Assembly: GCA_963851265.1 (NCBI GenBank)
Contig: CAWKNZ010000009.1
Location: 32,001 to 96,000 of the forward strand
Reading direction: 5' to 3'
Length of the DNA: 64,000 nt
DNA from: an uncultured Gemmatimonadales bacterium
GTDB taxonomy: Bacteria > Gemmatimonadota > Gemmatimonadetes > Gemmatimonadales > Gemmatimonadaceae
Part shown: in pieces, positions 1 through 60,639 of the stretch
How the letters are laid out: every line of letters begins with the position of its first letter
Numbering within the stretch: position 1 is the stretch's first letter
Made by a program: the position numbers and the translations under genes
The notes under the pieces: generated by a model
Database searches by the model: none
Seen by the model: the letters and a program-made list of their open reading frames with translations, nothing else
Told to the model about the DNA's origin: nothing

Positions 1-927
1 CTGCTCGAACGGCAGCACTACCCCGACCTGCGCGAGTACCCGGGCGGTCCGCCGAAGCGCCCCTACGACGTCACGGCGCACACGCTGCCGCTGCTCTACG
101 GTTTCGACGTCGCGTTCCTCCGCGACGCGCCGCCGGTCGTCGCCACCCCGCTCGCGCCGGTCCCCGCGACGCCCTGGGTGGCCGCAGGCCTCACCAGCGC
201 GGGACCCACCAACACCGCGACGCGGCGGATCGCGATCTACCGCAATTACCTGCCGTCGATGGACGAGGGGTGGACGCGGTGGGTGTTCGACCAGTACCAC
301 GTGCCGTACGCGGTGATCACGGCGAAGGACGTGCGCGCCGGCGGGTTGCGCACGCGCTTCGACGCCATCGTCCTCCCGGACCAGGGCGCGCGCCAGATCG
401 CCCGCGGGCCGACTGGCGCCTACCCGGACTCGCTCAAGGGCGGGCTCGGCGACGAAGGCGCGGCGCAGCTCCGCACGTTCGTCGACGGCGGTGGGACGCT
501 CGTCGCCTTCAACGAGGCGAGCGAGTACGCGATCGACGCGCTCTCGCTGCCGGTGCGCAACGTGCTGTCTGGCGTTAGGCCGAGCGAGTTCTACGCGCCG
601 GGCGCGCTGCTGCGTGTGGAACTCGACCGGGGCAGTCCGATCACGGCGGGCATGACGGCGCCGGAAGCGGCGGTCTGGTTCGAGAGCGGACCGGCGTTCG
701 AGGTGACCGACTCCGCGCGCGTCACGACCGTCGCGCGCTACCCCGCCGCGGGTGACCCGCTGCTGTCGGGTTGGCTGCTCGGCGGGTCGAGGCTGATCGG
801 CCGCGCGGCATTGGTCAGCGTGCAGAGTGGCCAGGGGCGCGTCGTGCTCTTCGGGTTCCGTCCGCAGTACCGCGGGCAGAGCATGGCGACATTTCCACTC
901 GTGTGGAACGCCTTACGTGAACGGTAG
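1..927 (+). CDS. M14-family zinc carboxypeptidase-like protein, C-terminal part with glutamine amidotransferase-like domain (5' partial)
   Basis: Frame is open from base 1 (LLERQHYPDLREYPGGPPKRPYDVTAHTLPL). PYDVTA.TLP, MDEGWTRWVFDQY and GRVVLFGFRPQYRGQ are typical of this family's C-terminus. Confidence 0.7.
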   Translation: MLERQHYPDLREYPGGPPKRPYDVTAHTLPLLYGFDVAFLRDAPPVVATPLAPVPATPWVAAGLTSAGPTNTATRRIAIYRNYLPSMDEGWTRWVFDQYHVPYAVITAKDVRAGGLRTRFDAIVLPDQGARQIARGPTGAYPDSLKGGLGDEGAAQLRTFVDGGGTLVAFNEASEYAIDALSLPVRNVLSGVRPSEFYAPGALLRVELDRGSPITAGMTAPEAAVWFESGPAFEVTDSARVTTVARYPAAGDPLLSGWLLGGSRLIGRAALVSVQSGQGRVVLFGFRPQYRGQSMATFPLVWNALRER

Positions 928-1277
928 AGGTTGCGTGACCGCCACGCGGCACGGACCGCGGGCAGCCGCAGCCTGTAGCGGCACCGCGCCGTCGTCGACG
1001 ACTGCACGCGGCAGGGCCGCGCGAGCGAGGGCCCCGGACTGGCGGTGGACGCCTCGCTTCCGAGCGGGTGCGTGATCGCGGACCCGCAGCGGCAGCGCGG
1101 GCGTCCAAGCGGCGGACGAGGCGAGATGCGTCGAGGCGCGGAGCGTCTCTCGAACCGAGGTCCGAAGGTATGTCCGCCGCCGCGGACCAGCACGCGCCTG
1201 CGGCGCGGCCGGCCCGGCCGTGACTCCTCCGCACGTCGGAGCGTCCGTGGTATGCCAGCGATCGGTCGTTCCCTCCC

Positions 1278-1823
1278 GTGCCTCTCACCGCGTTCGGTTC
1301 CGTGCGCTTCGACCGCTCCCGTCTATCCTCCGGCGCCGCACCGGTCCGCCGCGGGCGGAGCCTGCGCGTCGGAATGTCCCTCATCGAGGTGCTGGTCGCT
1401 CTCTCGCTGCTCGCGATCGCCGCGATGCTGACGATGCCGAAGGCGCTCGCGTTGCGACGGAGCGCGGCGACGGCCGCGGCGCGGCGTCAGATCGCGGCCG
1501 TCGCGGAAGCCGCGCGCGCGAGCGCGCTCCAGCGTCAACGTCCCGCGACCATACGGGTGACCGCTACGCGCACGGGCGCCACGCTGACGGCGAGCGTCGA
1601 CACCGGCGGGACGAGTCCCTACGTCGTATCGACACTCTCGGTCGCCGTCCCCGTCACCGAACGCCTGGCGGCGGACAGCCTCCTCACGTATGACGCGCGC
1701 GGCCTCCCGAGTCCGCGCCGGACGGCGATGATCGTGTACCTGCTCGGCGCGGCCACCGGCACGAAGGATTCCGTCTGCCTCTCGCCGTACGGCCACCTCC
1801 TGCCGCGGAACTGCGCACTGTGA
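1278..1823 (+). CDS. Type IV minor pilin, FimT/FimU/GspH-like
   Basis: Class III prepilin motif G|MSLIEVLVALSLLAI. Stop overlaps the next gene's start (GTGA). Start uncertain. Confidence 0.8.
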   Translation: MPLTAFGSVRFDRSRLSSGAAPVRRGRSLRVGMSLIEVLVALSLLAIAAMLTMPKALALRRSAATAAARRQIAAVAEAARASALQRQRPATIRVTATRTGATLTASVDTGGTSPYVVSTLSVAVPVTERLAADSLLTYDARGLPSPRRTAMIVYLLGAATGTKDSVCLSPYGHLLPRNCAL

Positions 1824-2224: not shown

Positions 2225-3204
2225 GCGGTTCGCGCCGCCGGTGCGCCTCGCCACCCGCCGCGTCGCCGCGCGCGCGGCCGCGGCCGCACGGGTTCACCCT
2301 CATCGAGCTGCTCATCGCGCTCGTCCTCGCGGCGCTGTGCGGCACGATGCTGACCGTGCTGCTCGCGTCGCAGCAGCGGATGTACGCGGTGCTCGACACC
2401 CGCGTCCGCGTCCAGCGCAACCTGCGAACCGGCGTGAGCGTGCTCCCCGCCGACCTGCGATCCGCGTCCGTGTCGCAGCGCGACCTCGTGGCCCTGCAGG
2501 ACACGATGGTGGAGCTGCGCGCGACGATCGGCTCCAGCATCGTGTGCGGGATCCCGAACAAGTCGCAGATCGACCTGCCACCCCTCAACGCGTCGAAGAA
2601 CGTCCTCTCGACCTGGTATTCGGTTCCGGTCACCGGCGACACGGTGTGGGTCTACGACGAAAACGTGAAGCCCACGCCAGAGGACGACCGCTGGAGCCCG
2701 TACCGGATCACCGCGTTCGCCGTCGCGCCCACGTCCGGCGCCGTCGCGTGCGCCAACTCGGCGTTCCTCGATCCGACGCAGGACGCCGCCACCGCCAAAC
2801 CGCGGTACCGCGTGACCCTGTCCGACACCCTGACCGACTCGGTGCGCCTCGGGGCGGGCGTGCGGTTCACCCGGAGGGTGCGCTACAGCCTGTACACGCC
2901 CGCGGGCGCGAGCGCGGCGTATCTCGGCTACGCCGAGAGTTCGGCGAGCGGCTGGTCCGCGCCTAACGTGCTTGCCGGACCGTTCCACCGGCCCGCCGCG
3001 GCGGGCCGCGGCGGCATCGCGTTCGCCTACTTCGACTCGACCGGCGCGGCGATCGCGGCACCGGTCGCGACGGCGGACCTCGTGCGCGTCTCGCGCGTCG
3101 ACGTCACGCTCCGCTCGACCATGCAGCCGCCGCGCACCATCGACACGCTCCGCGCGATCCGCGACTCGGCCCGCGTCCGCGTCGCGCTGCGCAACCGCCA
3201 ATGA
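2212..3204 (+). CDS. Type IV minor pilin, PilW-like
   Basis: G|FTLIELLIALVL motif and C-terminal VRVALRN. I chose GTG 2212, which overlaps the previous gene, instead of the ORF-track start at 1837. Confidence 0.8.
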   Translation: MSQLSGSRRRCASPPAASPRARPRPHGFTLIELLIALVLAALCGTMLTVLLASQQRMYAVLDTRVRVQRNLRTGVSVLPADLRSASVSQRDLVALQDTMVELRATIGSSIVCGIPNKSQIDLPPLNASKNVLSTWYSVPVTGDTVWVYDENVKPTPEDDRWSPYRITAFAVAPTSGAVACANSAFLDPTQDAATAKPRYRVTLSDTLTDSVRLGAGVRFTRRVRYSLYTPAGASAAYLGYAESSASGWSAPNVLAGPFHRPAAAGRGGIAFAYFDSTGAAIAAPVATADLVRVSRVDVTLRSTMQPPRTIDTLRAIRDSARVRVALRNRQ

Positions 3205-4397: not shown

Positions 4398-4548
4398 CGG
4401 CGCCCGATCGTCGCGCCACGTACAACGGGGCCTAACGTCCGTCCGCGGTACCGTCGCGGTCTCGCCCGGCGTCGGGGTCTCATCGGCGTTAGTCGCGCTC
4501 GGGTCTGGGATGGGCGTCCGCGCGCGGCGCGGACGACGGTGAGCGCAC

Positions 4549-4968
4549 GTGCTCGCGTCAGGCCCGTCAAGGGTCGCGCGCCCGGCCCGCACAGCACGTC
4601 CGCGATGGCGTATCCGAGGTATCACTCGCCACCTTCGAGGCGCACGCCGGCGGCGACGACGTACCCCGACGCGCCAGGGGCGAGCGTGGCCAGGCGTCCG
4701 ACGAACGCCGGCGCCAATCGGCGGCCGCGGTCGGGAGCACGTCGCCCTCATCGAGTGGTCCGGCGACTGTTGGACGGGGTATCTGCGCCACGACCAGCGT
4801 GCGCGCTCCGTACACGAGGGGCGCGAGGCGACCTTCGTCCTCGTCGAGAACACGTCGCTCCAGCGGGCGATCGACGCCGAGCTCGAGGACGTGCCCACCC
4901 TGGCATCGCCGACCGCGGGTGAGCGGCAGGGCACGAACGGGAACGCGCAGGCGCGGCGGTCTGCCTAA
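4549..4968 (+). CDS. Hypothetical protein (start uncertain)
   Basis: Only the 3' half (EHVALIEWSGDCWTGYLRH...AIDAELEDV) reads as protein-like with GC3-biased codons. Confidence 0.35.
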   Translation: MLASGPSRVARPARTARPRWRIRGITRHLRGARRRRRRTPTRQGRAWPGVRRTPAPIGGRGREHVALIEWSGDCWTGYLRHDQRARSVHEGREATFVLVENTSLQRAIDAELEDVPTLASPTAGERQGTNGNAQARRSA

Positions 4969-5057
4969 CATACCGGCGCGCGGGTCCGTGAGCGTCCGGG
5001 AACGTGGGGCGCGTCAGGGCGCCCGAACCAAACGGTGTTCGCGAGGGGGGTACGGGC

Positions 5058-5145: not shown

Positions 5146-7827
5146 ATGGCCGTTTCCGTCGAGCTACCCGCACCGCCGGCCTCCACCGCCCCAGACCCGC
5201 GCGAGCTGGTGGTCACCCACGTCCGTGCCCTGCGCGGTCCCAACTACTGGCGCCTCGCGCCGGTCATCGCCTGCGACGTCCGGCTCGGCGCGCTCGAGCG
5301 GGTGACGTCCGCGGACATGGACGGCTTCGCCGACTGCCTCCTCGCGGCGATGCCGAGTCTCCACGAACACCCGTGCAGCCCCGGCCGCCCGGGCGGCTTC
5401 GTCGAGCGACTCGCCCGCGGCACGCACCTGCCGCACATTCTCGAGCACGCCGCGCTCGAGTTCCAGACGCTGGCCGGGAACGACGTGCACTTCGGGCGGG
5501 TCGTGCCGAGCGGCGATCCGGGCGTGTGCTGGGTGATCGTCGAGTACGACGAGGAGGAGGTCGGCCTCGAAAGCGTGCGCGAGGCGGCCGCGCTCGTGCG
5601 CGCCTGCATGGACGGCACGCCGTACGACATGGACGGCGTGGTGCGACGGCTCGTGCGGCTTCACGAGACCGCGCGTCTCGGACCCTCGACGTCGGCAATC
5701 GTCGAGGAGGCGCGGCGCCGGGGGATCCCGGTGCGCCGACTGAACGAGCGTTCGCTCGTGCAGTTGGGCCTCGGCCGCAACCTCCGGCGGCTTCGCGCCA
5801 CCGTCACCGGGTCCACATCGCTGATCGGCGCGGAGATCGCCCAGGACAAAGAGGACACGCGGCGCGCGCTCCAGAACGTCGGGCTGCCGGTGCCGCGGGG
5901 GGGTGTGGCCGATACGCTCGACGACGCGCTCGCGCTCGCAACGCGCGTCGGCTATCCCGTCATCCTGAAGCCGGTCAACCTGAATCACGGTCGGGGCATC
6001 TCCGACCGCCTCGACACGCCGGACGATCTCGCGGCCGCGTGGGAGGCGATGCCCGAGGAAGTCCATCGCGGGTCGTCGCGCGGGCTCATCGTCGAGCGGT
6101 TCGCCACGGGACGCGATCACCGAGTGCTCGTGGTGAACGGGCGGGTGGTGGCGTGCGCCGAGCGCGTACCGGCGCACGTGGTCGGCGACGGCGTGCGCAG
6201 CGTGAGGGCGCTCATCGAGGACGCGAACCGCGACCCGCGCCGAGGGCGCGGGCATGCCAAGGTGCTCACCTTCCTTCCCTGCGACTCGACGACGGAGGAG
6301 TACCTCGTCCGCCGCGGGCTCACGCTCGACAGCGTGCCGGCCGCGGGTGAGCCGGTGTTCCTGCGCGCGACGGCGAATCTGAGCACCGGCGGCACCGCGG
6401 TCGACCGCACCGAGGAGATGCACCCCGACAACGTGACCGCGTGCGAGATGGCGGCGGGGATCGTCGGGCTGGACGTGGCCGGGATCGACGTGCTCACCCC
6501 GGACATCTCGCGGCCGTTCCGCGAGACCGGCGCGGTTATCATCGAGGTGAATGCGGGGCCGGGGATCCGCATGCACACGCATCCGGCCGTCGGCACTCCG
6601 CGGAACGTCGCCGCGCCGATCGTCGACATGCTCTACGCCCCCGGGCAGCCGACGACGATCCCGGTAATCGCCGTCACCGGGACTAACGGCAAGACCACGA
6701 CGACTCGCCTCATCGCCCACCTCTTCCGCCACACGGGCGTCAACGTCGGCTTCACCACGACCGACGGCATCTACGTCAACAACCGCCTCGTGGCCGAGGG
6801 TGACATGACGGGGCCGTGGTCGGCGAACGTGATCCTCTCCAACCCGACGGTCGACGTGGCGGTGCTCGAGACCGCGCGCGGCGGGCTCCTGCGTGCGGGG
6901 CTCGGGTTCGACGAGTGCGACGTCGCGATCGTGATCAACGTCTCGGCCGACCACCTCGGGATCGGCGGAATCCATACGCTCGATCAGCTCGCGATGGTCA
7001 AGGGCGTCGTGCCCGCGGTCGCGAAGCGCGAGGGGCACGCGGTGCTCAACGCCGACGACCCGCTCGTCTTCGGGATGGCGGCGCGGACGAACGCCGACGT
7101 GGTGCTCTTCTCGACGCGCCCGGCCGGCGAGAATCCCGAGTTCGAGGCGCACCTCGCGCGCGGCGGGATCGGGGCGCGTATCGCGGACGACGCCTTCGTC
7201 GTGTGCCGCGGCAAACTGCGCATCCCGATCGCGGCCGTGCGCGACGTGCCGTTGATGTTAGGCGGCGCGGCGCGGTTCCAGGCGCAGAACGTGCTCGCCG
7301 CGGTGCTCGCCGCGTACGTGCGCGGCGTGCGGTACGACGACATCCGTGCCGGTCTGCTCACGTTCTTCCCGTCCACGGCGCTCACCCCCGGGCGCGTCAA
7401 CCTCCTGCGGCTCGGGCGCAAGCGCGTCCTCGTCGACTACGGGCACAACGCCGCCGCGGTGGAAGGCATCGTCGACGTCGCGCGGCACCTCGAGGCGCGG
7501 CGCCGCGTGGGCGTGGTGACCGGCCCGGGCGACCGCCGCGACGAGGACCTCCGCACGCTGGGGCGCCTCATGGCGCCGCTCGACCATGTCATCATCAAGG
7601 AGGACGTCGACCGCCGCGGCCGCCGGCCCGGCGAAATTGCCGCGCTCATCCGCGAGGGGCTTCTCGAAGGCGGGCTCGATCCGGCGCACCTCGAGGAGGT
7701 GCTCGACGAGCGTGCGGCCGTCCAGCGCGCGGTCGACATCCTCGACGACGGCGACCTCGCCCTGGTAGCCGCGGTCGACGTCCGCACCGTGCTCGACCTG
7801 CTCGGCGCTCTCGGCGCGCACGGGTGA
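5146..7827 (+). CDS. cphA: Cyanophycin synthetase
   Basis: 893 aa. N-domain ALRGPNYW, HILEHAALE, LGPST; ATP-grasp KPVNLNHGRG, ANLSTGG, IEVNAGPG; Mur-ligase domain VTGTNGKTTT, LETARGG, DYGHN. Confidence 0.95.
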   Translation: MAVSVELPAPPASTAPDPRELVVTHVRALRGPNYWRLAPVIACDVRLGALERVTSADMDGFADCLLAAMPSLHEHPCSPGRPGGFVERLARGTHLPHILEHAALEFQTLAGNDVHFGRVVPSGDPGVCWVIVEYDEEEVGLESVREAAALVRACMDGTPYDMDGVVRRLVRLHETARLGPSTSAIVEEARRRGIPVRRLNERSLVQLGLGRNLRRLRATVTGSTSLIGAEIAQDKEDTRRALQNVGLPVPRGGVADTLDDALALATRVGYPVILKPVNLNHGRGISDRLDTPDDLAAAWEAMPEEVHRGSSRGLIVERFATGRDHRVLVVNGRVVACAERVPAHVVGDGVRSVRALIEDANRDPRRGRGHAKVLTFLPCDSTTEEYLVRRGLTLDSVPAAGEPVFLRATANLSTGGTAVDRTEEMHPDNVTACEMAAGIVGLDVAGIDVLTPDISRPFRETGAVIIEVNAGPGIRMHTHPAVGTPRNVAAPIVDMLYAPGQPTTIPVIAVTGTNGKTTTTRLIAHLFRHTGVNVGFTTTDGIYVNNRLVAEGDMTGPWSANVILSNPTVDVAVLETARGGLLRAGLGFDECDVAIVINVSADHLGIGGIHTLDQLAMVKGVVPAVAKREGHAVLNADDPLVFGMAARTNADVVLFSTRPAGENPEFEAHLARGGIGARIADDAFVVCRGKLRIPIAAVRDVPLMLGGAARFQAQNVLAAVLAAYVRGVRYDDIRAGLLTFFPSTALTPGRVNLLRLGRKRVLVDYGHNAAAVEGIVDVARHLEARRRVGVVTGPGDRRDEDLRTLGRLMAPLDHVIIKEDVDRRGRRPGEIAALIREGLLEGGLDPAHLEEVLDERAAVQRAVDILDDGDLALVAAVDVRTVLDLLGALGAHG

Positions 7828-7859
7828 CGCGTCCTCGTCTCACACCGTAGCCGGCGCGG

Positions 7860-8812: not shown

Positions 8813-9961
8813 TCAGTGCCGCTGACCGACGAGATCGATGCGCCGGCGACTCGTCGCGAGAAAGCGTTCGCGTTCGACGAGGCGCCCGTCGTCCACGACG
8901 TGCCGCCCGCGGGCGAACACGTGCACGACCTCGAGCGAGTCGGCGCGGAGCACGAGCACGTCGGCGTCGCAGCCCCGAGCGAGGCGCCCCTTGTGCGGCA
9001 GCTTGAGCACCGACGCGGTGTTGCGCGTGATCAGCGGGAGCATGCGCGCGAGCGGGATCCCGTGGCGCACGACGCAGTCGCGCCACTCCGCGGCGAGCTG
9101 GCCCGGACTGCTCGTCCCGGTGTCTGACGAGATCGTGAGGCGGTCGGGATGGCCGCCGTGGTCGAACCAGTACGTCACCCACCGCGCGAGGTCACCCTCG
9201 ACGGTGTCGATGTCGGCGTGGGCGCCGCGCGCGACGAGGGCGATCGCCTCGTCCATGAGCGCCTCCGTGCGCTCGATGTGTGTGGGGTAGAGCATGTCGG
9301 GCGTCACCGGGTAGTCGCCGTCGAGCAGGTGGAACAGGCGGCGGAGCCGGTTTGCGTGCGCGCCGACGTGGAAGTGGGTGACGCCGGCCTTCCGACTCAG
9401 CATCCCGCCCACGTGCGTGTCGAGCACGAGCTTCGCGAGCTCGTCGGCCGACGGGTCGACGCCGCGGTGGTCGGCGATCGCGATCTCGCCCGCGCCGATC
9501 ACCTCGTCGATGAACAGCATGTCGTTGCGGATCGATCCGGTGACCGTGGTCGGCGGCACGTTGTAGCCGCCCGACCAGCAGTACGCCGTGAGCCCCTCCT
9601 CCTTGAGCCCCTTCACGCGGGCGAGCAGGCCGGCCATCGTCTTCATCGTCGTGTCGACGCCCAGCGCACCCACCACGGTCGTGATACCGTTAGGCACGAT
9701 CTCGCTCAGCACGACTTCGGGCGTCTGCGTCGCGTAGCCCTCCTCACCGCTGCCGCCGAGGAGGTGCTCGTGGGGGTCGATGAAGCCGGGGGTCGCGAAG
9801 CAGCCCGTCGCGTCGACGACGGCGAGGTCGAGCCCGGCAGCTTCGACGGCGCGCCGGTCCACGCGTCCGATCGTGCCGACCTTGTCCCCGACGAGGAGGA
9901 GGCTCGCCGTGCCGAGTGGCTCGGGGGCGAACACGTCGGCATTCTCGATCAGCGTGAGCAC
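8813..9961 (-). CDS. iadA: Beta-aspartyl (isoaspartyl) dipeptidase, amidohydrolase family
   Basis: PGFIDPHEHLLGGSGEEG, GITTVVG, GEIAIADHR, HFHVG, LYPTH, TISSD. GTG start at 9961. Lies next to cphB. Confidence 0.88.
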   Translation of the reverse strand: MLTLIENADVFAPEPLGTASLLLVGDKVGTIGRVDRRAVEAAGLDLAVVDATGCFATPGFIDPHEHLLGGSGEEGYATQTPEVVLSEIVPNGITTVVGALGVDTTMKTMAGLLARVKGLKEEGLTAYCWSGGYNVPPTTVTGSIRNDMLFIDEVIGAGEIAIADHRGVDPSADELAKLVLDTHVGGMLSRKAGVTHFHVGAHANRLRRLFHLLDGDYPVTPDMLYPTHIERTEALMDEAIALVARGAHADIDTVEGDLARWVTYWFDHGGHPDRLTISSDTGTSSPGQLAAEWRDCVVRHGIPLARMLPLITRNTASVLKLPHKGRLARGCDADVLVLRADSLEVVHVFARGRHVVDDGRLVERERFLATSRRRIDLVGQRH

Positions 9962-12924: not shown

Positions 12925-13192
12925 CGGTCGAGTGTCGGGGACCAGGGTGTCGGGCGCCGCTGTGTCAGGGGTCGAAGCGGTCGTAGATCGGCACTCAACG
13001 TTACACCGCGCGGATTGGTGCGCGGGTCGGGCGCGTAGCCGACGCGGCGGCGACCACGCGCGCGGCGGAGGTACGATCCGTACCCCTTGCGACCACTGGT
13101 TCGACCGGCGGGTGGGCCCGGCCGCTCGAGGATCCGCGAGCCGAGCACCCGGCGTCTCGCAGGACGGGGCGGGTGCGACCGCGTGGATACCG

Positions 13193-13999
13193 TTAGGCCG
13201 CTCGCGGGTCGCCGGCGAGGTACGTCCCCAACGCCTGCCGCACCGCGTCCGACGTACGCGCCCCGGCCACGCCGTCGACCTTCACGAACACGCCGGGGAG
13301 CGTGTTCAACCAGCGCTGCAGGGCCTCGGCCCGCTCGGCAACCGCGGGATCGGCGGGGCGTGCGGTCGCGTAGGGTACGAGCGGCGGCGCGCCCGCGGTC
13401 GGGGCCTGCTGGTCGGGGAACTCCATCACGGCGCGCTCGGCGAGCCGTCGCAGCAGCACCGCCGCCCCGCACTGCGTCGAGCGCGCCGTGGCCGACCACG
13501 TGCCGTCGGCCACGTACTTGCCGCTGTCGTACCAGTCGGAGAAGCTCCACAGGTACGGCGTGCGGACCTCGGGGTGGTACAGCCGGTAGCCGAACCCGTT
13601 GTATCCCTCGACGTGGTAGAGCGTGTCGGAGAGCCCCCACCCGCTTCCCGCGTTCAGCCCGCGGCACGCGAGCGCGTCGCCGGCGCTCGCCTCCCAGGTG
13701 AACGGCGGACTTCCGTTGGTCGGCCTCCCTTCCGGCACGTGCGCCGTGCGCGCCGTGAGCGGGTCGCCGTTGTGGAGGTGGCACCTGAAGCTGCGGTCCG
13801 ACTCCATGTTGTGGATCACCGCGACGACGTACCACGGCACGCCGGTCGTGGCCTGCACGGCCTCGTAGCGCGCGCGGTCGGCGAGGATGCCGTCGCACAC
13901 GCGGTCGACTTCCGCGGCGTGCTCCGGGCGCGGCTGACATCCGTTGAACAGCGCCTCGTACTCGTCGCCGAGGGTGGCGGTGAACGCGACGGTGGACAC
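13193..13999 (-). CDS. Lysozyme-family protein with C-terminal peptidoglycan-binding domain
   Basis: VPWYVVAVIHNMES, HLHNGDPL, EGYNGFGYR, PYLWS, GKYVADG; PG-binding LQRWLN...VDGVAGART. AAGGAGG RBS precedes the GTG. No signal peptide. Confidence 0.82.
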   Translation of the reverse strand: MSTVAFTATLGDEYEALFNGCQPRPEHAAEVDRVCDGILADRARYEAVQATTGVPWYVVAVIHNMESDRSFRCHLHNGDPLTARTAHVPEGRPTNGSPPFTWEASAGDALACRGLNAGSGWGLSDTLYHVEGYNGFGYRLYHPEVRTPYLWSFSDWYDSGKYVADGTWSATARSTQCGAAVLLRRLAERAVMEFPDQQAPTAGAPPLVPYATARPADPAVAERAEALQRWLNTLPGVFVKVDGVAGARTSDAVRQALGTYLAGDPRAA

Positions 14000-14084
14000 G
14001 GGATTGATCCTCCTTGGGGCGGGCGGGGAGGTGCGAAGCGGGCGAAGCGCGCGGAAGGCGCGGAGCTGCCGACCGCGGATGTGC

Positions 14085-15446
14085 CTAACGCAGCGTCGTC
14101 ACCTGCCAGTGCACGAGGTCCGGGTACTTCGCCGTGGCGTCCACCGGGCGCTCGGCGACCATCTGGTCGACCGCGGCCGCGAACGACTGCTGCATGGCGT
14201 CCGTCGGCGGGGCGGGCGTGCCGAGTTCGGCCGTCGGCGAGAGCGGGAGCGCGGGAGCGGGCGGGGGCGGCGCCGGGCGCGGCGTGCTTCGCGTCAGCGC
14301 CGCCGACACGCTCGCGATCCCCTGCGCCCGCCGCGCGTCGACGCTGTCGGAGTACGGCGTGCCGGGCGCGCCGAAGCGCTCGGCGAGGAATTGCAACACC
14401 GACGTGTGGTCGAGCGGCGCGTGGCAGACGCTCGCGGCGTCGACCAGCGGGGAGAGCACCACCGCCGGCACGCGCGGCCCCGTGCTCTCGAACACCCCCC
14501 CGGGCGCGCCCGCGACCGGCTGCCGCACGGGGAGCGGCGGGACGTGGTCCCAGAAGCCGCCGTGCTCGTCGTACGACACGACCATCACCGTCGTCGCCCA
14601 GCGCGCCGGATTGCCGACGAACGCGGCGTACGTGCGCCGGAGGAACGCCTCGCCGAAGCCCACCGGGAGCGGCGCGTGGTCGTCGTTCCCGTGGCGGCCT
14701 AACATCCGCTCGATCGAGTCGTACGCCGGCTCGACGACGATCACCTGCGGGAAGGTCGCGTCCGGCTCGGTGAGCACGTCGAGCGCGAGGCGGCTCGTCG
14801 GGGCGAAGTTCGGGCCGAAGACGTGGCCGAGCTGCCCCGTGTAGAGCGTGAAGAACGAGAAGCTCTCGTGGTACACGCGCCAGCGCACGCCCCGCGCCGT
14901 GAGCCAGTCGAGCACCGTCGGCCCCGCGTCGATCACCCCGGTGCCGGTGGTCGCGATCGGGCTCGCGCCGGTGAGCGCCATCGTCTTGTTGGGCTGCGTG
15001 CTCGTCGGCAGCGGCGCGAACCAGCGGTCGCACGTGCAGTAGCTGCGCGCGAAGAAGCTCGTCACCGGGACGTGGTCGGCTCGAACGAACGCCATCGGCT
15101 CGGCCTGGCTGCTCGCCACGCGGCAGCCGTCGGCCCTCGCGTACGCCTCGACGAATCCGTTCATCTCGTAGCGCCCCGTGACGTCGGACTTCGCGAGCTG
15201 CGTCGTGACGGCACCGGCTTCGTGCGGCAGGTCGCAGGAGAGCGTGCCGTCGTCGACCATCGGCCACGGGTGGTAGAGCGCGCCGTCGAGCGGATTCGCG
15301 TACCGGTCGCTCGCGAGCGGTTGCGTGAGGCCGTCGACGCCGGGTACCAGCCCGTCGAGGCTCAGGTGCCCGAGCATGTGGTCAAACGAGCGGTTCTCCA
15401 TCATCACGAGCACGACCGTCTGCACCAGCGTGCGTAGCTCCGGCAT
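14085..15446 (-). CDS. Phospholipase C / AcpA phosphoesterase family protein (no signal peptide)
   Basis: VVLVMMENRSFDH, TSTQPN, DDHAP, YDEHGGFWDHVPP, GPRVP, DHTSVL. ATG is coupled to the upstream stop (TGATG). Confidence 0.87.
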   Translation of the reverse strand: MPELRTLVQTVVLVMMENRSFDHMLGHLSLDGLVPGVDGLTQPLASDRYANPLDGALYHPWPMVDDGTLSCDLPHEAGAVTTQLAKSDVTGRYEMNGFVEAYARADGCRVASSQAEPMAFVRADHVPVTSFFARSYCTCDRWFAPLPTSTQPNKTMALTGASPIATTGTGVIDAGPTVLDWLTARGVRWRVYHESFSFFTLYTGQLGHVFGPNFAPTSRLALDVLTEPDATFPQVIVVEPAYDSIERMLGRHGNDDHAPLPVGFGEAFLRRTYAAFVGNPARWATTVMVVSYDEHGGFWDHVPPLPVRQPVAGAPGGVFESTGPRVPAVVLSPLVDAASVCHAPLDHTSVLQFLAERFGAPGTPYSDSVDARRAQGIASVSAALTRSTPRPAPPPPAPALPLSPTAELGTPAPPTDAMQQSFAAAVDQMVAERPVDATAKYPDLVHWQVTTLR

Positions 15447-21097: not shown

Positions 21098-21121
21098 CGC
21101 GGGGGCGGAGCGGGTCCGGCG

Positions 21122-24170: not shown

Positions 24171-24192
24171 CATCCTCGGCTGAGCGCCCCTC

Positions 24193-37713: not shown

Positions 37714-37808
37714 GGCTCGGGGGCTCGGAGGGAACGACGTGACGTTAGGCAGCACCGCCGCCCCGCGAATACCGCGCCGCAGGCGCGCGCTGCGGCCGTC
37801 CCGGTGCC

Positions 37809-44089: not shown

Positions 44090-47000
44090 CTAGCGGGACT
44101 CGGCGCGCTCGCGCGGCCGCGGCTCCCGGTCGCGCGCCGGTGCCGACCCGCCAATCCGGAAGAGGTCGTCCAGCGCCGCCGCGATCTCCTCTTCGAGCGC
44201 GGCGCGGTCGACCAGCGCGGCCGCCCCGATCCGCCGCCCGATCCGCGCCAGCACCGCCTCCCGCGCCTCGTCGAGCAGCTCGTACACCGTCGGCACGACG
44301 AGCAGCGTGAGAAGCGTGCTCGTGAGCGTGCCGCCGATCACCGCGATGCCCAACGGCGCGCGGAACTGCGCCCCCTCGCCGGACCCCAGCGCGACCGGGA
44401 TCATCCCCGCGATGAGGGCGAAGGTGGTCATGAGGATCGGCCGCAGCCGCGTCGCGCCGGCGTCGACGAGCGCCGCGCGCAGCCCGAGCTGCCGCTCCTC
44501 GCGCGCCGACTTGGCGAAGTCGATGAGCAGGATCGCGTTCTTGGCCACGATGCCGCAGAGGAGCATCACGCCGATCAGGCTCATGATGTTGATCGTGTCG
44601 CCCGTGACCGCGAGCGCGAACATCACGCCGACCAGCGACAGCGGCAGCGAGAGCATGATCGCGATCGGGTCGAGGAAGGAGCCGAACTGCAGGACGAGGA
44701 TCAGGTACATCAGGAGCACCGCGGTGCCGAGCGCCGCGCCGATCTCGCCGAACACCTCGTCCTGGTCCTTCGACTCGCCGCCCATCGTGACGCGCACGCC
44801 CGGCGGGAGGGCGAGCGCGCGGACCTTGCCCTCGACCTCCGCCGAGACGTCGCCGCTCGGCCGGCCGGCGGTGTTGGCCTCGACCGTGACCACGAGGTCG
44901 CGGTCGAGGTGGTCGATCACGGCGGGGCCGACGCTGCGCGTGACGCGGGCGACCTGGCCCAACGGCACCGTGGCCGCGCCGTCCGGGCCCGCGACGGCGA
45001 GCGGCAGCTCGGCGACGTCGGCGGCGCGGGCGCGCGCGCCGGGGGTGAGGCGCACCTGGACGTCGCGCATCCGGCCGCCCGGGTCCTGCCAGTCGCCGGC
45101 CTTGATCCCCGCGAAGGCGGGGCGCAGCGCCTGCGCGACCTGCCCCGCCGTGACGCCGAGCACGCCGGCGACGCCGCGGTCGAGCACTACGTTCAGCTCG
45201 GGCTTCTGTCCCTTGGTCGAGAGGCCCACGTCGACCGCGCCGGGCACGCCGCGCACCGCGGCCGCGACCTGCTCGGCCGCCCGCGAGAGCGTGGCGAGGT
45301 CCGCGCCGCGCAGCTGGAGCTGCAACTGCTTCTGCCCGCCGTCGAGGTCGTTGGTGAACACGGAGAACGTCGCGCCCGCGAGCCGCGACGTCTCACGCCG
45401 CAGCTCGGCCGCGACCGCCTCGGCGTCCTTCGCGCGGCGCTCCTTCGGGACGAGGCGGACGTAGACGTTCCCCTCGTCGACGCTCCCGCCCGCGCCGCCG
45501 CCTAACGTGACGTACGTGTAGCGCACTTCGGGGTGCGCGCGCGCGATCCGGACGGCCTCCTCGGCCTTCTCGCGCGTGTAGGCGAGGTTGGAGCCCGGCG
45601 GCGTCTCGATGGCCATCGTGAACTCCGAGCGGTCGTCGGTCGGGAAGAAGCTGACGCCGACCGGACGCCAGGCGGGCACCAGCTGCGGCCCGACAGCGAA
45701 CACCGCGACGCCGAGCGCCCCGAGGCCGAGGCGGGCGGCGACCGGCGCGCGCGCGAGGGTGAGCGCGCCGACGACCAGGCCGATCCCGGCGAGCGCGACG
45801 CCGAGCCCGGTGAGTCCCGCGGAGGGGAGGACGAAGGAGGCGAGGAAGCTGCCCACCGCCACGGTGATCATGACCGCGCGGTGGTCGAGCGCCCACGCGA
45901 TCACGTCGCGGTAGCGTTCCGACTGCCGGTCGAACCACGCGTTGAAGCGGTCGAGCGCGCGCGTGAGGCGCGATTTCTCGTCCTCGCGCACGTGCGGGTC
46001 GGGCCAGTAGGCCGAGAGCATCGGGTCGAGCGAGAAGCTGACGAACAGCGAGACGAGCACCGCGCACGCGATCGTGAGCGCGAAGGGCTTGAACCACTGC
46101 CCGCCGACCCCCGGCATGAAGCCGATCGGCACGAAGACGGCGAGGATCGAGAACGTGGTCGCGGCCACGGCGAGCCCGATCTCGTCGGTGCCCTCGTGCG
46201 CGGCCGCCACGTGGTCCTTCCCCATCTCGACGTGACGCACGATGTTCTCGCGCACGACGATCGCGTCGTCGATCAGGATCCCGATGGCGAGCGAGAGCCC
46301 GAGCAGCGACATCGTTTCGAGCTTGAAGCCGAGCAGCCAGACGGCGATGAACGAGGCGAGCACGCTCACCGGCAGCGCGAGCCCGGTGATGATCGTCGAG
46401 CGCCACGAGTTGAGGAAGACGAACACGACGAGTACGGTGAGCACGGCGCCCTCGACGAGCGCCTCCTCGACGTTCCGCACGGCGGCATCGACGCGCGTGC
46501 CGGCGTCGCGCACGAGCTCGAGCCGGGTGCCCGGCGGCAGGCGGCGCTGGATCGCGGCGACGCGCTCGCGGACCCGCTCGCCCACGTCGGTCGTGCTGTA
46601 GCCCTGCCCCTTCTTGATGTCGATGCCGACGGCCTCGCGCCCGTCGTAGAGGGCGAGCGAGCGCGCCTCCTCGGTGCCGTCGCCGACGTCGGCCACGGCG
46701 CCGAGCCGGACGAGGGCGCCGTTGCGCTGCGCGACGACGAGGTCGGCGAACTCGCGCGGGTCGACGAAGCGGCCCTTGAGCCGGATGCTGCGCTCGTCGA
46801 GTGCGCCCTCGACGCGCCCCACGGGGGCGGCGAGGTTCTGCGCCTGCAGCGCCTGGACGACGTCGCTCACGCTCACCCCGTTCGCCCTGAGCGCGTCGGG
46901 CTTGAGCAGCACCGAGATCTCGCGCACGGCCTTCCCGAACACCTGCACCTCGGCCACGCCCGGGATCGCGCGCAGCTCGCGCGTGATGCCCGGGTCGACG

Positions 47001-47467: not shown

Positions 47468-47718
47468 GGCCGCGTCGTGAAGGCGGGGTCGAACGGGGGA
47501 GGGACGGACTGCTGTCCCTGGACGATCGTCCGCCGATCCGGTCCCACGGCGGGGAGCGACTGACACGAGAACGTGGTCGCAGGCGCGCGGGCGCGGCCTA
47601 ACAGCGCGCGCCCGCCGCGGCCCGCGCCGGGGGCGCGGGCCAGCCTTCCGGGCCGTCGCGCTGTCTCAATCCGTATCCCGTTGTAACGCGCCGCCCCGCT
47701 GTTCCGTACATTCGAGTC

Positions 47719-50435: not shown

Positions 50436-54640
<4,205 letters not shown>

Positions 54641-54830
54641 GGGGCGTCCGTGATAGGGCCGGCGTGGAAGCGGAAGCGCTACACGCCTCGGCCACAACAA
54701 TACGCATCGCGTGTCACACCGCGAGTGAGGATCGGGTGAGGATCGGGTGATCGCGCCGCGCGATAGTCGCGTCGCCGCGTCGGACACCCCGGTTCTGCTG
54801 CGGCTCGTCCCCGACTCCTGGTGTGTACCG

Positions 54831-55790
54831 ATGCGATTCCTGAGTTTCCCCGGGCGTACGCCGCGCGAGGCACGTTGCACGCTCGGCGCGCTCGCCGTGG
54901 GCGCGCTCGCGCTCGGCGCCTGCGCCGATGGCCCCGGCGCGACGGCGCCGTCGCCGGCCGCGGCGATCGTCGCGCCGTGCGCGGCCAACCGCGCCAACCA
55001 GTCGCAGCTGCAGTTGGTGTGCAGCGCGGGGGTGACCGACGCCGTGCAGACCGGGCACGCACCGGGCGGCTCGATCTTCCGCACCGGCTTCGAGCCGCCC
55101 ACCTACACCGCAGGCCCGCTGACCGGTCAGGACGGCTGGCTCAGCATCACCCACGACGCGGCCGCGACGGTCTCCGCGGACCGGCCGCGTGAGGGCCGCC
55201 AGTCCATGCACATCGATGGCCGGCTCGTCGTGCCGATTCCGGGGCAGGACGCGACCGGTAGCGTGAACTTCCGCAATCTGTTCTACGACACCGGTGCGGC
55301 GGGAACGCCGATCGTCGACGTGCAGGCGGACGTGCGACTCGACGGGCCCCGGACGTACAGCGACGATCCCAACGACGACGCGGTCAGCGCCCGTCTCGTG
55401 GCGATCGGCCTCGACCCGGATGGTGCGCGCCGGCGCCTGGGCTTCGCCGTGGTGTCGTCGGTCGGCGCGTTTCACGCCGAAGCCGACGGTGGCCGGATCG
55501 TCGCGGCCGCGCCGACCACGCTGGGCCACGCGCACACCGTCCGGATGCGGTGCGATTTCGCGCGTCGCACCATCGAGTTCTTCCTCGACGGCCGCTCGTT
55601 AGGCACCTGGCCGTTCTTCGACGCCGCCGCCACGTCCACCGTACTCGCGAACGTGCGGCTCGACCTGCGGGCCGAGAGCACCCCGCAGTACGACGCCGCG
55701 CCATACCAGGCCTCCTTCGACAAGCTCGCCGTGCGGGTCGCGCGGCCGGGGGCAGAGCGCCCCGACCCGGACGACGACGACGGACGGTGA
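54831..55790 (+). CDS. Hypothetical lipoprotein (beta-sandwich)
   Basis: LGAC lipobox, FRTGFEPPTY..GPLTGQDGW, beta-rich body. Confidence 0.7.
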   Translation: MRFLSFPGRTPREARCTLGALAVGALALGACADGPGATAPSPAAAIVAPCAANRANQSQLQLVCSAGVTDAVQTGHAPGGSIFRTGFEPPTYTAGPLTGQDGWLSITHDAAATVSADRPREGRQSMHIDGRLVVPIPGQDATGSVNFRNLFYDTGAAGTPIVDVQADVRLDGPRTYSDDPNDDAVSARLVAIGLDPDGARRRLGFAVVSSVGAFHAEADGGRIVAAAPTTLGHAHTVRMRCDFARRTIEFFLDGRSLGTWPFFDAAATSTVLANVRLDLRAESTPQYDAAPYQASFDKLAVRVARPGAERPDPDDDDGR

Positions 55791-57508: not shown

Positions 57509-58363
57509 ATGCGGGCGAACCTGCGGCTCCTGAAACGCCATGCCACGCGATTGGAGGACTTCGATGTCCGCACCACCACGCCCACTGTCTCCGACCCACC
57601 GCGACGGTCGGTGGGAGCTCGTCGTCCATCGGACACCGCCGGTGCCCGAGCCGTGAGGGGCGCCGCGCTCTGGAGCATGGTCGCCGCACTCGCGCCTGCG
57701 GCGCTCGTGGCGCAGGCGACTCCGCCGCGCGCCGGTGCGCTCGGCGTGCCGTCGGCATCGGACGAGGTACGGTGCGTGGATCCGGCGGCGGCTGTCCCGC
57801 GCCCGGCGTACGGCTGCTTCAACGTCGGCCACCGCGCCGGCCTGACGTTCGCCGACACGCTCGTCGTCTGGCGCCTGTATCGCTTCGCGGACCGCGCCGC
57901 CGCCGAGGCGGCCCGCAGCCCGCGCGGCGTGGTGGCGGAGGTCGCAGACACCGTGTGGCTGAGTGAACTCGCGGAGCAGGGGGCGCCGCCGGCGCGCGCG
58001 GCCGGCGGCGCCCTCGCGCTGGAGAGCGGTCCGCTGGTGCTACCCCCGGCGCCCAGCTACGAGGCGAGCCTGGCGTACGCGGTCTTCCGCCCCGGGATGC
58101 GCTCGCGCGTGCACGTGCACGCCGGGCCCGAGGCGTTCTACGTGCTCGCGGGCGCGCAGTGCGTCGAAACGCCCGCCGGCGTCGTCCGCACCGCGGCCGG
58201 CGGGACGACCGTGCTTGCAGCCGGCACCCCGATGGCGCTCGCCGCGGCAGGCGACGGAGAGCGCCGCGCGTTCGCGATCGTCGTGCACGACGCGCGGCGC
58301 CCGCAGGCGGAGGCCACGCCGTGGCGCCCCGCGGGCGCGTGTGGCGGCACGACGGGACGTTAG
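57509..58363 (+). CDS. Exported cupin-domain protein
   Basis: HVHAGPEAFYVLAG cupin motif and a signal-like segment. Start is probably 57653 or 57677. Confidence 0.72.
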   Translation: MRANLRLLKRHATRLEDFDVRTTTPTVSDPPRRSVGARRPSDTAGARAVRGAALWSMVAALAPAALVAQATPPRAGALGVPSASDEVRCVDPAAAVPRPAYGCFNVGHRAGLTFADTLVVWRLYRFADRAAAEAARSPRGVVAEVADTVWLSELAEQGAPPARAAGGALALESGPLVLPPAPSYEASLAYAVFRPGMRSRVHVHAGPEAFYVLAGAQCVETPAGVVRTAAGGTTVLAAGTPMALAAAGDGERRAFAIVVHDARRPQAEATPWRPAGACGGTTGR

Positions 58364-58755
58364 GCAGATGCACGCATGCTCACCGTCCCGGGCGTCCGCG
58401 CGTCGGGTCGATAACACCCGTTAGGCCGGCGCGGTCGTGAGGTCCGCCGCGTGGCGGGTGCCGTGCGGGCCGGTGACACCCGGCCCGCACGCCGAGGCGT
58501 GGACACGGCCCCGGTCGGGCGCGCCGACGCGCGCCGCCACGCGTGTTCCCGATGGCGCAGCGTCCACGCTACGCCGTCGCACGACGTCGATCGACGGAGA
58601 CCGTGTCGCGTGCGCCCGGACGTCCCCGTTGCGCGTGCGATTTGTTGCGTCACAATGTAATGTGTGAGATCCGAACGGAGCACGACGGCGCCCGCACACC
58701 GGGCGCGCGCGCGCCTCCGTGCCTGGACACCGTGCATCCGACGCCGCCGCCTCGA

Positions 58756-60639
58756 ATGTCCGTATTCGCCACCGCGCGTCCTCGACACGCCGCCGTCGGC
58801 GTGGTCCCGCGCCCTCGCACCCTGGCGCTTCTCGCCGGGCTTCTGTTGGCCGGCGCCTGCGTGCGCGAACGGGAACGCGCGCCCGCCGCCGAAGCGGCGC
58901 GGTCCCCCGCCCTCCCCAGCGGCCCGCGCGCGAGTGCGGTCCTCGACGCCGAAGACGGCCAGTGGACGCGGCCCGCCAAGAGCTACTCGTCGCTGCGCTA
59001 CAGCCAGCTCGGCGAGATCACGACGGCCAACGTGCGCGGCCTGCGGCCAGCGTGGACGTTCTCGACCGCGGTGCTGCGCGGGCACGAGGAGCCGCCGCTC
59101 GTCGTGAACAACACGATGTACGTGCTCACGCCGTTCCCGAACCTGCTCTACGCGCTGGACCTGACGCAGCCGGGCGCGCCGGTGAAGTGGACGTACACGC
59201 CCAAGCCCGAGCCGGCGTCGCAGGGCGTCGCCTGCTGCGACGTCGTGAACCGCGGGCCGGTCTACGACAACGGCCGCATCTTCTACAACACGCTCGACGA
59301 CCACGTCGTCGCGGTGGACGCGGCCACGGGCAGGGAGGTCTGGAAGACCAAGGTCGGCGAGATCAACCTCGGCGAGACCATGACCATGGCGCCGCTCGTC
59401 GTGAAGGGGAAGGTGCTGGTCGGCGATTCGGGCGGCGAGATGGGCGTGCGCGGGTGGATCAAGGCGCTCGACGCCGGGACCGGGAAGGTGGTCTGGACGG
59501 CGTACAACACCGGACCCGACAAGGACGTGCTGATCGGGCCGCGTTTCAAGGCGTTCTATCCCAAGGATCAGGGGAAGGACCTCGGCGTGAACTCGTGGCC
59601 CGGCACGCAGTGGCAGATCGGCGGCGGCACGGTGTGGGGGTGGCTGTCGTACGACCCCGAGCTGAACCTGGTCTACTACGGCAGCGGCAACCCCGGGCCG
59701 TGGAACCCGTCGCAGCGGCCGGGCGACAACAAGTGGACGTCGACCGTGTTCGCGCGCGACCCCGACACGGGTGAGGCGGTGTGGGCCTACCAGGTGAGTC
59801 CGCACGACATGCACGACTACGACGAGGTCAACGAGTCGTTGCTCCTCACGGTGCCGTGGAAGGGACGGCAGCGCCGCGTGCTGCTGCGCCCCGGGCGCAA
59901 CGGCTACGTGTACCTCATCGACCGGACCAACGGCGAGGTGCTGTCGGCGGAGCCCTTCGTGCACATCACGACGACGAAGGGCGTCGACCTGAAGACAGGG
60001 CAGCTGCTGTACGAGCCGACGCAGGAGCCGCAGGTGGGCCGGGTGGTGCGCGACGCCTGCCCCGCAGCGCCGGGCGGCAAGGACTGGCAGCCGTCGGCGT
60101 TCTCGCCGCGCACGGGGCTCGCGTACCTGCCGCACCAGAACCTCTGCCAGGACGTCGAGGGGCTCGAGGCCAACTACATCGCCGGCACGCCGTACGTCGG
60201 GATGAACGTGCGCATGAAGGCGGGCCCGGGCGGCCACCGCGGCGAGTTCACGGCGTGGGACCCGGTCGCGGCGCGCCCGGTCTGGACGATCAAGGAGCGC
60301 TTCCCGGTGTGGAGCGGCGCGCTCGTCACGGCGGGCGACGTCGCCTTCTACGGCACGATGGACGGCTGGTTCAAGGCGGTCGACGCGCGCACGGGCCGGG
60401 AGCTGTGGAAGTTCAAGTGCGGCTCGGGGATCATCGGCCAGCCGGTGACCTACCGCGGGCCGGACGGGAAGCAGTACGTCGCGATCGCGTCCGGCGTGGG
60501 CGGGTGGTCGGGCGCGATCGTCTCGGGCGGCCTCGACCCGCGCGACTCGACGATCGCGTTAGGCTTCGGCGCCGCGATGGCCGACCTGCCGCAGGCGACC
60601 ACGAAGGGGGGCACGATCTACGTGTTCGCGCTGCCGTGA
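58756..60639 (+). CDS. xoxF: PQQ-dependent methanol/alcohol dehydrogenase, lanthanide-type (XoxF-like)
   Basis: LRGHEEPPLVV, vicinal ACCDVVNRG, GGEMGVRG, GNPGPWN, RPGDNKW, HDMHDYDEVNE (D-x-D), SGIIGQP, GVGGW. Confidence 0.85.
   Translation: MSVFATARPRHAAVGVVPRPRTLALLAGLLLAGACVRERERAPAAEAARSPALPSGPRASAVLDAEDGQWTRPAKSYSSLRYSQLGEITTANVRGLRPAWTFSTAVLRGHEEPPLVVNNTMYVLTPFPNLLYALDLTQPGAPVKWTYTPKPEPASQGVACCDVVNRGPVYDNGRIFYNTLDDHVVAVDAATGREVWKTKVGEINLGETMTMAPLVVKGKVLVGDSGGEMGVRGWIKALDAGTGKVVWTAYNTGPDKDVLIGPRFKAFYPKDQGKDLGVNSWPGTQWQIGGGTVWGWLSYDPELNLVYYGSGNPGPWNPSQRPGDNKWTSTVFARDPDTGEAVWAYQVSPHDMHDYDEVNESLLLTVPWKGRQRRVLLRPGRNGYVYLIDRTNGEVLSAEPFVHITTTKGVDLKTGQLLYEPTQEPQVGRVVRDACPAAPGGKDWQPSAFSPRTGLAYLPHQNLCQDVEGLEANYIAGTPYVGMNVRMKAGPGGHRGEFTAWDPVAARPVWTIKERFPVWSGALVTAGDVAFYGTMDGWFKAVDARTGRELWKFKCGSGIIGQPVTYRGPDGKQYVAIASGVGGWSGAIVSGGLDPRDSTIALGFGAAMADLPQATTKGGTIYVFALP

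Follow-up and report, generated by a model that had tools for sequence, protein, structure and literature searches.

What keeps a short, non-palindromic word in a bacterial genome in numbers far above chance? The question is raised by a stretch of 64,000 nucleotides from an uncultured Gemmatimonadales bacterium (positions 32001-96000 of contig C9 in the genome assembly G000; hereafter the window), in which the heptamer GCCTAAC recurs on both strands, in unrelated genes and between them. The original prediction, made from the letters alone, took the word for a possible uptake-signal-like sequence, or for the site of a nucleoid protein or a methylation or repair system, and knew of no description of it in this lineage. 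Our literature searches found no such description either: no link between Gemmatimonadota (Gemmatimonadetes) and uptake sequences came up, and the word itself was found only in an integron paper and an unrelated paper. To our knowledge, tags for sequence-specific DNA uptake have been described in just two families, both of Proteobacteria. We find that the feature is genome-wide and lineage-wide, a word kept at the DNA level by a strong, stepwise, saturating and orientation-blind bias. The explanation that fits best, and that we hold tentatively, is a self tag for DNA exchange, comparable to the DNA uptake sequence (DUS) and the uptake signal sequence (USS) and read by a postulated protein.

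Abundance of the word in the window and the genome

The window contains 31 copies of GCCTAAC, 16 on the + strand and 15 on the − strand, followed by G in 25 cases, by A in 5 and by C in 1; positions, strands and next-base counts all agree exactly with those first reported. Dinucleotide-preserving shuffles of the window yield a mean of 1.74 copies (standard deviation 1.31, maximum 5), and none of 100 shuffles reaches 31. The earlier hand estimate of about five expected copies was thus too high, and the enrichment in the window is stronger than had been claimed. Nor is it confined to the window: the whole assembly of 4.60 Mb (12 contigs, 73% GC) holds 1762 copies, 877 on the + and 885 on the − strand, and every one of the 12 contigs bears the word at 0.33 to 0.55 per kb. 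GCCTAAC is the top-ranked and by far the most over-represented 7-mer of the genome. Markov models of orders 1 to 3 predict 96 to 160 copies, or 63.5 if the word is masked, and the enrichment is 14 to 28 times the Markov expectation. The enrichment persists over a codon-aware null. Our own codon log-odds caller, which is approximate, predicted 3240 genes (84% of the genome), and we shuffled synonymous codons within these 20 times; the shuffled genes contain 75 copies on average and 94 at most, against 1192 observed, a 16-fold excess.

The word has a well-defined core. Of the 1794 occurrences of GCCTAA, 1762 continue with C; G stands in the eighth position in 79% of the genomic copies, and the preceding base is C in 54% and T in 22%, giving the consensus (C/T)GCCTAACG with unconserved flanks: over 14 bases on each side, codon periodicity is the only further conservation seen. 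Copies of GCCTAAC account for 29% of all TAA/TTA trinucleotides in the genome. Among its one-mismatch neighbors, GCCCAAC is the sole abundant one with strong enrichment (1393 copies, 622 expected).

Placement in coding sequences and spacers

Of the genomic copies, 1191 (68%) are located inside called genes, 180 overlap gene ends and 391 are intergenic. Four reading frames are open to the word, as the remaining two would give stop codons. Within genes, 889 copies are read as xxG-TTA-GGC (X-Leu-Gly), 193 as xxG-CCT-AAC (X-Pro-Asn), 75 as xGC-CTA-ACx (x-Leu-Thr) and 34 as GTT-AGG-Cxx (Val-Arg-x), and the word occupies 9.0%, 13.7%, 4.3% and 1.0% of the respective compatible sites. The consequences for codon usage are considerable: 889 of the 1250 TTA codons in called genes stand within G-TTA-GGC, and the word also contains 122 of 402 TAA stops (GCC-TAA-C) and 72 of 732 TAG stops (GT-TAG-GC). 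Synonymous shuffling predicts 34.5 sense and 40.4 antisense copies, against 268 and 924 observed; the antisense excess arises because Leu-Gly is common. Each of the four spacer types has between 0.46 and 0.60 copies per kb, however the flanking genes are oriented, and genes have 0.31. The word therefore sits wherever coding tolerates it, overriding codon usage. The copies of the window are distributed likewise. By our gene calls, nine are read as X-Leu-Gly, six as X-Pro-Asn, one as Leu-Thr (CGC-CTA-ACG) and one as Val-Arg (GTT-AGG-CCG), six provide TAA or TAG stops and eight are in spacers, so that the reported intergenic and multi-frame placement is borne out in all four frames.

Stepwise gain and saturation

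Alignment of 400 kb of a congeneric genome, G001, to G000 produced 103 kb of blocks with 78 to 93% identity. G000 has 37 sites in these blocks and G001 has 70; 19 sites are common to both. At unshared sites the commonest counterpart is the one-step neighbor GCCCAAC (G-TTG-GGC), followed by GCCCAGC and (G/C)CCGAGC, which correspond to CTG and CTC codons. At G-[Leu]-GGC positions in 53 word-poor related loci (1.05 Mb), leucine is encoded by CTC in 62.7%, CTG in 27.1%, TTG in 2.5% and TTA in 0.4% of cases. The corresponding shares are 65.0, 8.5, 7.9 and 17.4% in G000, 55.8, 9.5, 7.4 and 26.2% in G001, and 61.8, 10.3, 6.6 and 20.6% in the plasmids of Gemmatirosa. The CCT codon in X-Pro-Asn has a share of 0.8% in word-poor controls, 18% in G000, 44% in G001 and 53% in Gemmatirosa. 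The word is gained mainly along the path CTG to TTG to TTA, by two transitions and through an intermediate that is itself enriched; this route via TTG accounts for GCCCAAC standing alone as an abundant neighbor with strong enrichment. The leucine and proline codon shifts point to point mutation combined with a strong directional bias in fixation, and argue against block insertion, footprints of mobile elements or templated multi-base conversion as the source of the copies.

Gaps between copies in G000 are distributed nearly exponentially (mean 2592 nt, coefficient of variation 1.07), with a shortage of close neighbors: 46 gaps are below 200 nt (130 expected) and 193 below 500 nt (307 expected). 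A deficit in the same direction is found in G001, in the word-rich relative G012, in G121 and G063 taken together, and in Gemmatirosa. Copies thus avoid one another within 500 nt, and the word is saturating. Density in G000 increases with local GC content and with codon typicality. Stretches of lower GC that are poor in the word were considered as foreign DNA, an interpretation that we dropped on account of their contents—housekeeping operons (nusA-infB, secDF) and gene-free gaps of rRNA size—and we make no argument from genomic islands. The low density in these stretches is read as the cost of rare codons in housekeeping genes.

Distribution in the family and the phylum

To describe the distribution we classified genomes by the density of GCCTAACG, using thresholds of our own: dense at 0.15 per kb or more, and intermediate or poor below that. 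Among 151 Gemmatimonadaceae genomes from 77 genera (a tally that includes the unpublished genomes G011, G049, G050 and G148), 36 are dense, 18 intermediate and 97 poor, and the highest density is 1.3 per kb. In a wider survey of 251 genomes of the phylum (including the unpublished G011, G203, G232 and G304), enrichment outside the family was found only in some species of g110, a genus of a second family; the 84 genomes from ten other families showed no enrichment. None of our specific claims depends on the unpublished genomes. Of 80 related loci, all from metagenome-assembled genomes, 9 have at least 8 copies and 62 have none. Public reads provided one run with 0.30 of the words, as short contigs only, and nothing usable at the word sites. 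The word is identical in every bearer, and no dialects were seen. It is also present in a cultured organism: the type strain Gemmatirosa kalamazoonensis KBS708 has 42 copies per 50-kb sample in two megaplasmid samples, 27 to 34 times the expectation of a Markov model of order 2. A candidate second word in the word-poor related locus L051 was rejected, being instead a local tandem heptamer; the locus has inverted CCTAATC arrays of 3 and 4 units about 235 nt apart (L051:13575-13858).

Orientation

The original prediction set the word apart from Chi and from the KOPS motifs (FtsK orienting polar sequences) by its equal numbers on the two strands. This argument is invalid, because a polar motif would also give equal + and − totals and they are no test of replication polarity; the conclusion itself holds on other grounds. 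In 50-kb bins of G000, the difference between word strands is uncorrelated with GC skew (rho −0.02, p 0.87) and follows gene strand (rho −0.56). In regions where at least 75% of the neighboring coding sequence is on one strand, X-Leu-Gly sites are occupied in 88 of 1056 cases in co-oriented genes (8.3%) and in 12 of 157 in counter-oriented genes (7.6%), and X-Pro-Asn sites in 11 of 132 (8.3%) and 2 of 24 (8.3%), respectively. In spacers between co-directional genes, the coding strand reads GTTAGGC 112 times and GCCTAAC 97 times (p 0.33). The word is orientation-neutral within the limited power of these tests for weak biases. Runs of + matches in the family survey, which might have been taken for polarity, proved to be an artefact of listing order: contig C1 of G121 has 46 + and 40 − copies, and contig C2 of G063 has 30 + and 42 −. 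Separately, gene strand in G000 switches sharply from + to − at about 1.36 Mb of contig C2, in a terminus-like manner, and a gene for a Xer-like recombinase is located at C2:1346667-1347503.

The word as a possible self tag for DNA exchange

In the explanation that we tentatively prefer, (C/T)GCCTAACG would act as a self tag of double-stranded DNA, recognized by a postulated sequence-specific protein of the DNA-exchange machinery; the reading step would most likely be natural transformation via type IV pili, ComEA and ComEC. Word-bearing DNA would be preferentially taken up or recombined. Point mutations leading to the word, or a single step towards it, would then reach fixation more often than those destroying it, and the word would accumulate wherever coding tolerates it until it stood about every 0.7 to 2.6 kb. 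Two parts of this scheme are inferred: the biased step being uptake or recombination, and the existence of a dedicated reader. Its abundance, neutrality of orientation, coding-tolerant placement and presence across related genera, together with the competence genes, make the uptake-signal-like interpretation of the original prediction the best fit. In G000 a ComEA-like gene is located directly upstream of a PilB-type ATPase gene, and there are two PilA-like pilins and several clusters of minor pilins, one of them within the window. A Pfam search for ComEC identified it in 139 of the 151 family genomes, among them every one of the 36 dense genomes; the 12 that lack it are 10 poor and 2 intermediate. 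This pattern is weak support, since the genomes are related and do not count as independent. For soil populations, with Gemmatimonadetes species included, PMC7305173 describes homologous recombination and ComEC loci as common.

The word resembles the DUS of Neisseriaceae and the USS of Pasteurellaceae, the self tags of Neisseria and Haemophilus, in several respects. In each case one short non-palindromic word has about 1000 to 8000 copies per genome, on both strands and in genes as well as spacers, without strand or replication polarity, and is common to related species; particular reading frames are used (those of lowest cost for DUS and USS, and here the only four that are open), and genes for type IV pili and ComEC are present. 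The available text of PMC2817400 reports 1471, 765 and 1892 uptake sequences per genome, with 34 to 65% of them in ORFs (for further comparison, see the accessible portions of PMC3630211 and bioRxiv 10.1101/2025.06.16.659825). It also differs from them. The word has 7 to 8 bases instead of 9 to 12 and almost never occurs in inverted pairs or terminators; a single form without dialects is common to many genera, yet most of the family is without it and contrasts are found inside a genus. It is moreover written with the rarest codons, belongs to another phylum and has no ComP-type receptor that we could find.

Several observations weigh against an uptake tag. No receptor was found. Those of the DUS/USS kind are the minor pilin ComP and, by prediction, ComN; the ComP_DUS profile matches G000 proteins only at E-values of 0.07 and 0.18, below the cut-off. 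In a phyletic profile of the 151 family genomes, none of five competence and pilus genes tracks the word (apart from ComEC, the queries were G000's own proteins): ComEC, the PilA-like pilin of contig C1 and the PilX-like protein of the window are found in word-rich and word-poor genomes alike, and the small ComEA-like protein, present in only 13 genomes of both kinds, is absent from most of the word-rich genomes. The literature searched contains no demonstration of transformation in any member of Gemmatimonadota. A word of only 7 to 8 bases would provide weak discrimination, and its one-mismatch variants show no overall enrichment, the 21 variants together numbering 7350 in G000 with 7522 expected. 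The dominant frames of the word use the rarest codons, unlike the frames of USS, which correlate with preferred codons in the available text of PMC2817400. Inverted pairs within 40 nt are scarce in G000 (6 among 1750 adjacent pairs), whereas the accessible part of bioRxiv 10.1101/2025.10.24.684340 places about half of DUS and USS copies in terminators. The distribution is also patchy, with 3896 and 4141 copies in two genomes of genus g56 and 66 in a third, and the part of the 400 kb of G001 that aligns to G000 is no richer in the word than the whole (0.68 and 0.72 per kb, respectively).

Two further features concern this subject. Hairpin arrangements with the word were seen in three cases in G000; at C2:11190-11240 and C2:116118-116148 perfect intergenic hairpins have the word in both arms, a rare layout in the style of DUS-containing terminators. 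The pilin-like cluster of the window occupies positions 1278-4397, with N_methyl motifs at about 1371, 1883 and 2281 and a 398-amino-acid protein with a weak match to PilX_N. This protein has relatives of at least 50% identity in other genera and only 29 to 31% matches in the congeners G001 and G004, and the cluster accordingly looks accessory.

If the self-tag explanation is true, the word would be the third of its kind, and DNA self-tagging would be more widespread than thought. It belongs to an abundant, little-studied soil phylum and is switched on and off within genera, and the bias behind it is strong enough to place a rare codon at half of the compatible Pro-Asn sites. Since the cultured and fully sequenced G. 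kalamazoonensis bears the word, the question is directly testable.

Alternative explanations

The most probable of the alternatives is a binding site for a chromosome-associated protein—one that structures the nucleoid, acts in segregation or marks self DNA—with weak selection keeping a fairly even density on all replicons. The mutual avoidance of copies within 500 nt, the orientation neutrality and the equal density on the megaplasmids of Gemmatirosa are all compatible with such a protein, as is a word-free stretch of 45 kb in G000 around parA, parB and two parS-like palindromes; the orthologous par region also has few copies in G001 (3 over 27 kb) and G004 (9 over 38 kb). However, G012 has no such desert, G001 and G004 have copies only 1 to 2 kb from the parAB genes, no candidate protein has emerged, and the word is dispensable in 97 of the 151 family genomes and varies inside one genus. 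We consider this explanation unlikely. Methylation is a still less probable cause: a methyltransferase coupled to biased mismatch repair, as proposed for the highly iterated palindrome HIP1, or a target of restriction or a BREX-type system, would drive the accumulation. Enzymes of the MmeI/Eco57I type typically target non-palindromic 6 to 7-mers, a form that the word shares, and G000 encodes a 1141-amino-acid protein of this type (C7:582086-585511). This enzyme, however, is core to the family, being found at about 50% identity in 145 of 151 genomes, the word-poor ones included; no PF00145 or PF01555 enzyme was found in G000, and its two N6_Mtase genes are in pieces. The single-molecule real-time (SMRT) methylome of G. 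kalamazoonensis lists only RGATCY, ATGCAC and CCAGN7TCA (PMC3974934); the word is not one of these m6A motifs, and the method sees 5-methylcytosine poorly. Repair of one type of mismatch, by our reasoning, cannot create all seven positions, least of all a TAA core at 73% GC. The methylation or repair alternative of the original prediction is therefore disfavored, and we regard it as very improbable. The cyanobacterial HIP1 (GCGATCGC), still puzzling after three decades, is an instructive parallel. In the available portions of its literature it is an octamer 15- to 300-fold over-represented (PMC5861425, PMC13756078, bioRxiv 10.1101/2024.09.10.611283), hyper-abundant, written into genes, quasi-periodic and tied to orphan methylases; recent work connects its function, obscure for a long time, with transformation and gene transfer. 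It differs in being a palindrome that those methylases recognize; the word has no such symmetry and does not figure in the methylated motifs of G. kalamazoonensis.

The letters of the word also invite comparison with integrons, and here the fit is exact: the cores of attC sites are R'' RYYYAAC and R' GTTRRRY, and the R'' of the aadB attC is the word itself (in the available text of PMC12901181). The copies could then be R boxes of attC or attI, and an integron integrase, or a tyrosine recombinase derived from one, could use them as docking or secondary sites or meet them as decoys. The attC sites of G000 and of two relatives from the order, G021 and G023, have the form GCCTAAC(G/A)...(C/T)GTTAGGC, including the eighth-base preference of the dispersed copies, and integron integrases are widespread there, with 18 of 31 genomes of the order above the cut-off. 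Their presence is nevertheless unrelated to density. At E-values up to 1e-60, IntI was recovered from 24 dense genomes out of 36, from 11 intermediate ones out of 18 and from 58 poor ones out of 97 (Fisher p 0.55). In G000 the integrase is split, in G001 it is fragmentary, and G012 has it in pieces. More than 98% of the copies in G000 are solitary, in ordinary genes, without an L box or partner arm, against about 10 convergent pairs at 60 to 150 nt, and the pair of the window at 24165 and 24279 folds no better than shuffled sequences (z −0.38). By our reasoning, moreover, precise insertion and excision would leave no footprint, so an integrase could not write the word. A reader from the integron system is accordingly improbable. 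About equally improbable, in our judgment, is a variant in which a transformation receptor tuned to the attC R box harvests cassettes from environmental DNA, which it would favor because each attC holds the word twice, the chromosomal copies being a by-product of the uptake bias on the cell's own DNA; if true, it would couple natural transformation to the capture of integron cassettes, a link made conceivable by the identity of the word with the recombination core. Least probable, and largely refuted, is a function like that of Chi, as a signal to a helicase-nuclease, or like that of KOPS, as an orienting sequence. A 7-mer is a common length for Chi sites of the AddAB type, an AddAB-like operon is present in G000 (C3:244574-251686), and GTTAGGC is on the presumed leading strand in 131 of 183 copies in two strongly gene-biased regions of contig C2. 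Gene strand alone explains this last bias, as co-oriented and counter-oriented genes are equally occupied; spacer copies occur in both orientations (112 and 97) and GC skew is unrelated. RecC was not found in G000, and the AddB of G000 has counterparts in 14 of 151 family genomes (1 dense, 3 intermediate, 10 poor) and was not found in the word-rich G001, G004 and G012. Chi and KOPS are likewise short chromosomal words in excess, kept by weak pressure, but the word lacks replication polarity and a co-distributed RecBCD or AddAB.

Minor observations from the same regions can be added. The word-free stretch at C1:182876-227962 has normal GC content and contains parA-, parB- and mnmE-like genes, as well as the genome's only two copies of the palindrome TGTGGCACGTGCCACA, at 192709 and 195715; no canonical parS consensus was found in G000 at up to 2 mismatches. 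The dnaA gene (C1:12048-12530) is inside another word gap of 15 kb. The integron integrase of G000 is split into parts at C6:3005-3166 and C6:5244-6044, about 2 kb from each other, beside an attC at C6:1592-1708. Four isolated attC sites are found at C10:188.9-203.8 kb, and the surrounding 20 kb (C10:186001-206000) contain the word 22 times. The number of convergent pairs with a spacing of 70 to 100 nt was considered as a signal and rejected, as it simply scales with word density. The 1141-amino-acid Eco57I/MmeI-type protein may account for the ATGCAC methylation of G. kalamazoonensis. The pieces of the two N6_Mtase genes (C7:771474-772495 and C9:923-1858) are in different frames, and the genes are either broken or affected by assembly frameshifts. 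The AddAB-like operon at C3 is accessory in the family, with AddB in neither of the congeners searched (G001, G004).

Individual copies in the window

All copies in the window are listed here by position; they have the eight-base form GCCTAACG unless stated otherwise. The X-Leu-Gly frame accounts for nine. Two of them have the form GCCTAACA and are read as ATG-TTA-GGC (Met-Leu-Gly) on the gene strand, at 7257..7263 (−) and 14697..14703 (+). Ser-Leu-Gly (TCG-TTA-GGC) is encoded at 19000..19006 (−), 24279..24285 (−), where it belongs to the signal peptide of gene 24193-25611, and 55598..55604 (−). Ala-Leu-Gly (GCG-TTA-GGC) is encoded at 23412..23418 (−) and, in a PQQ-dehydrogenase-like gene, at 60558..60564 (−); the copy at 33093..33099 (−) is read as CCG-TTA-GGC (Pro-Leu-Gly), and that at 45500..45506 (+), in an AcrB-like gene, as ACG-TTA-GGC (Thr-Leu-Gly). 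The six X-Pro-Asn copies are those at 2961..2967 (+; GCG-CCT-AAC, Ala-Pro-Asn, in a pilin-like gene), 9689..9695 (−; GTG-CCT-AAC, Val-Pro-Asn, in a minus-strand gene), 32682..32688 (+; GGG-CCT-AAC, Gly-Pro-Asn), 35375..35381 (+; ACG-CCT-AAC, Thr-Pro-Asn), 37744..37750 (−; CTG-CCT-AAC, Leu-Pro-Asn, in a minus-strand gene) and 41784..41790 (+; GCG-CCT-AAC, Ala-Pro-Asn). The two rarer frames are represented at 17808..17814 (+), in an outer-membrane barrel gene (CGC-CTA-ACG, Arg-Leu-Thr), and at 574..580 (−), where the gene strand reads GTT-AGG-CCG (Val-Arg-Pro).

Among the stops, TAA is provided at 13192..13198 (−) for gene 13193-13999 (−) and at 21121..21127 (−) for gene 21122-21559 (−). A further TAA, in the form GCCTAACA at 24165..24171 (+), ends ORF 23514-24170, which the codon log-odds caller overlooked and which encodes a CBM_4_9 protein with a weak PEP-CTERM tail; this copy does not form an attC arm. 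TAG stops are formed by the complement of the word at 14083..14089 (+) for gene 14085-16070 (−) and at 51558..51564 (+) for the kinase gene 51560-55102 (−), and at 58359..58365 (−) for gene 57509-58363 (+). The remaining copies lie in spacers at 4430..4436 (+), 28771..28777 (+), 32163..32169 (−) and 58420..58426 (−), between called genes at 50805..50811 (+), 5' of a cyanophycin-synthetase-like gene at 4963..4969 (+; GCCTAACA), and in divergent spacers at 17380..17386 (+; GCCTAACC) and 47596..47602 (+; GCCTAACA).

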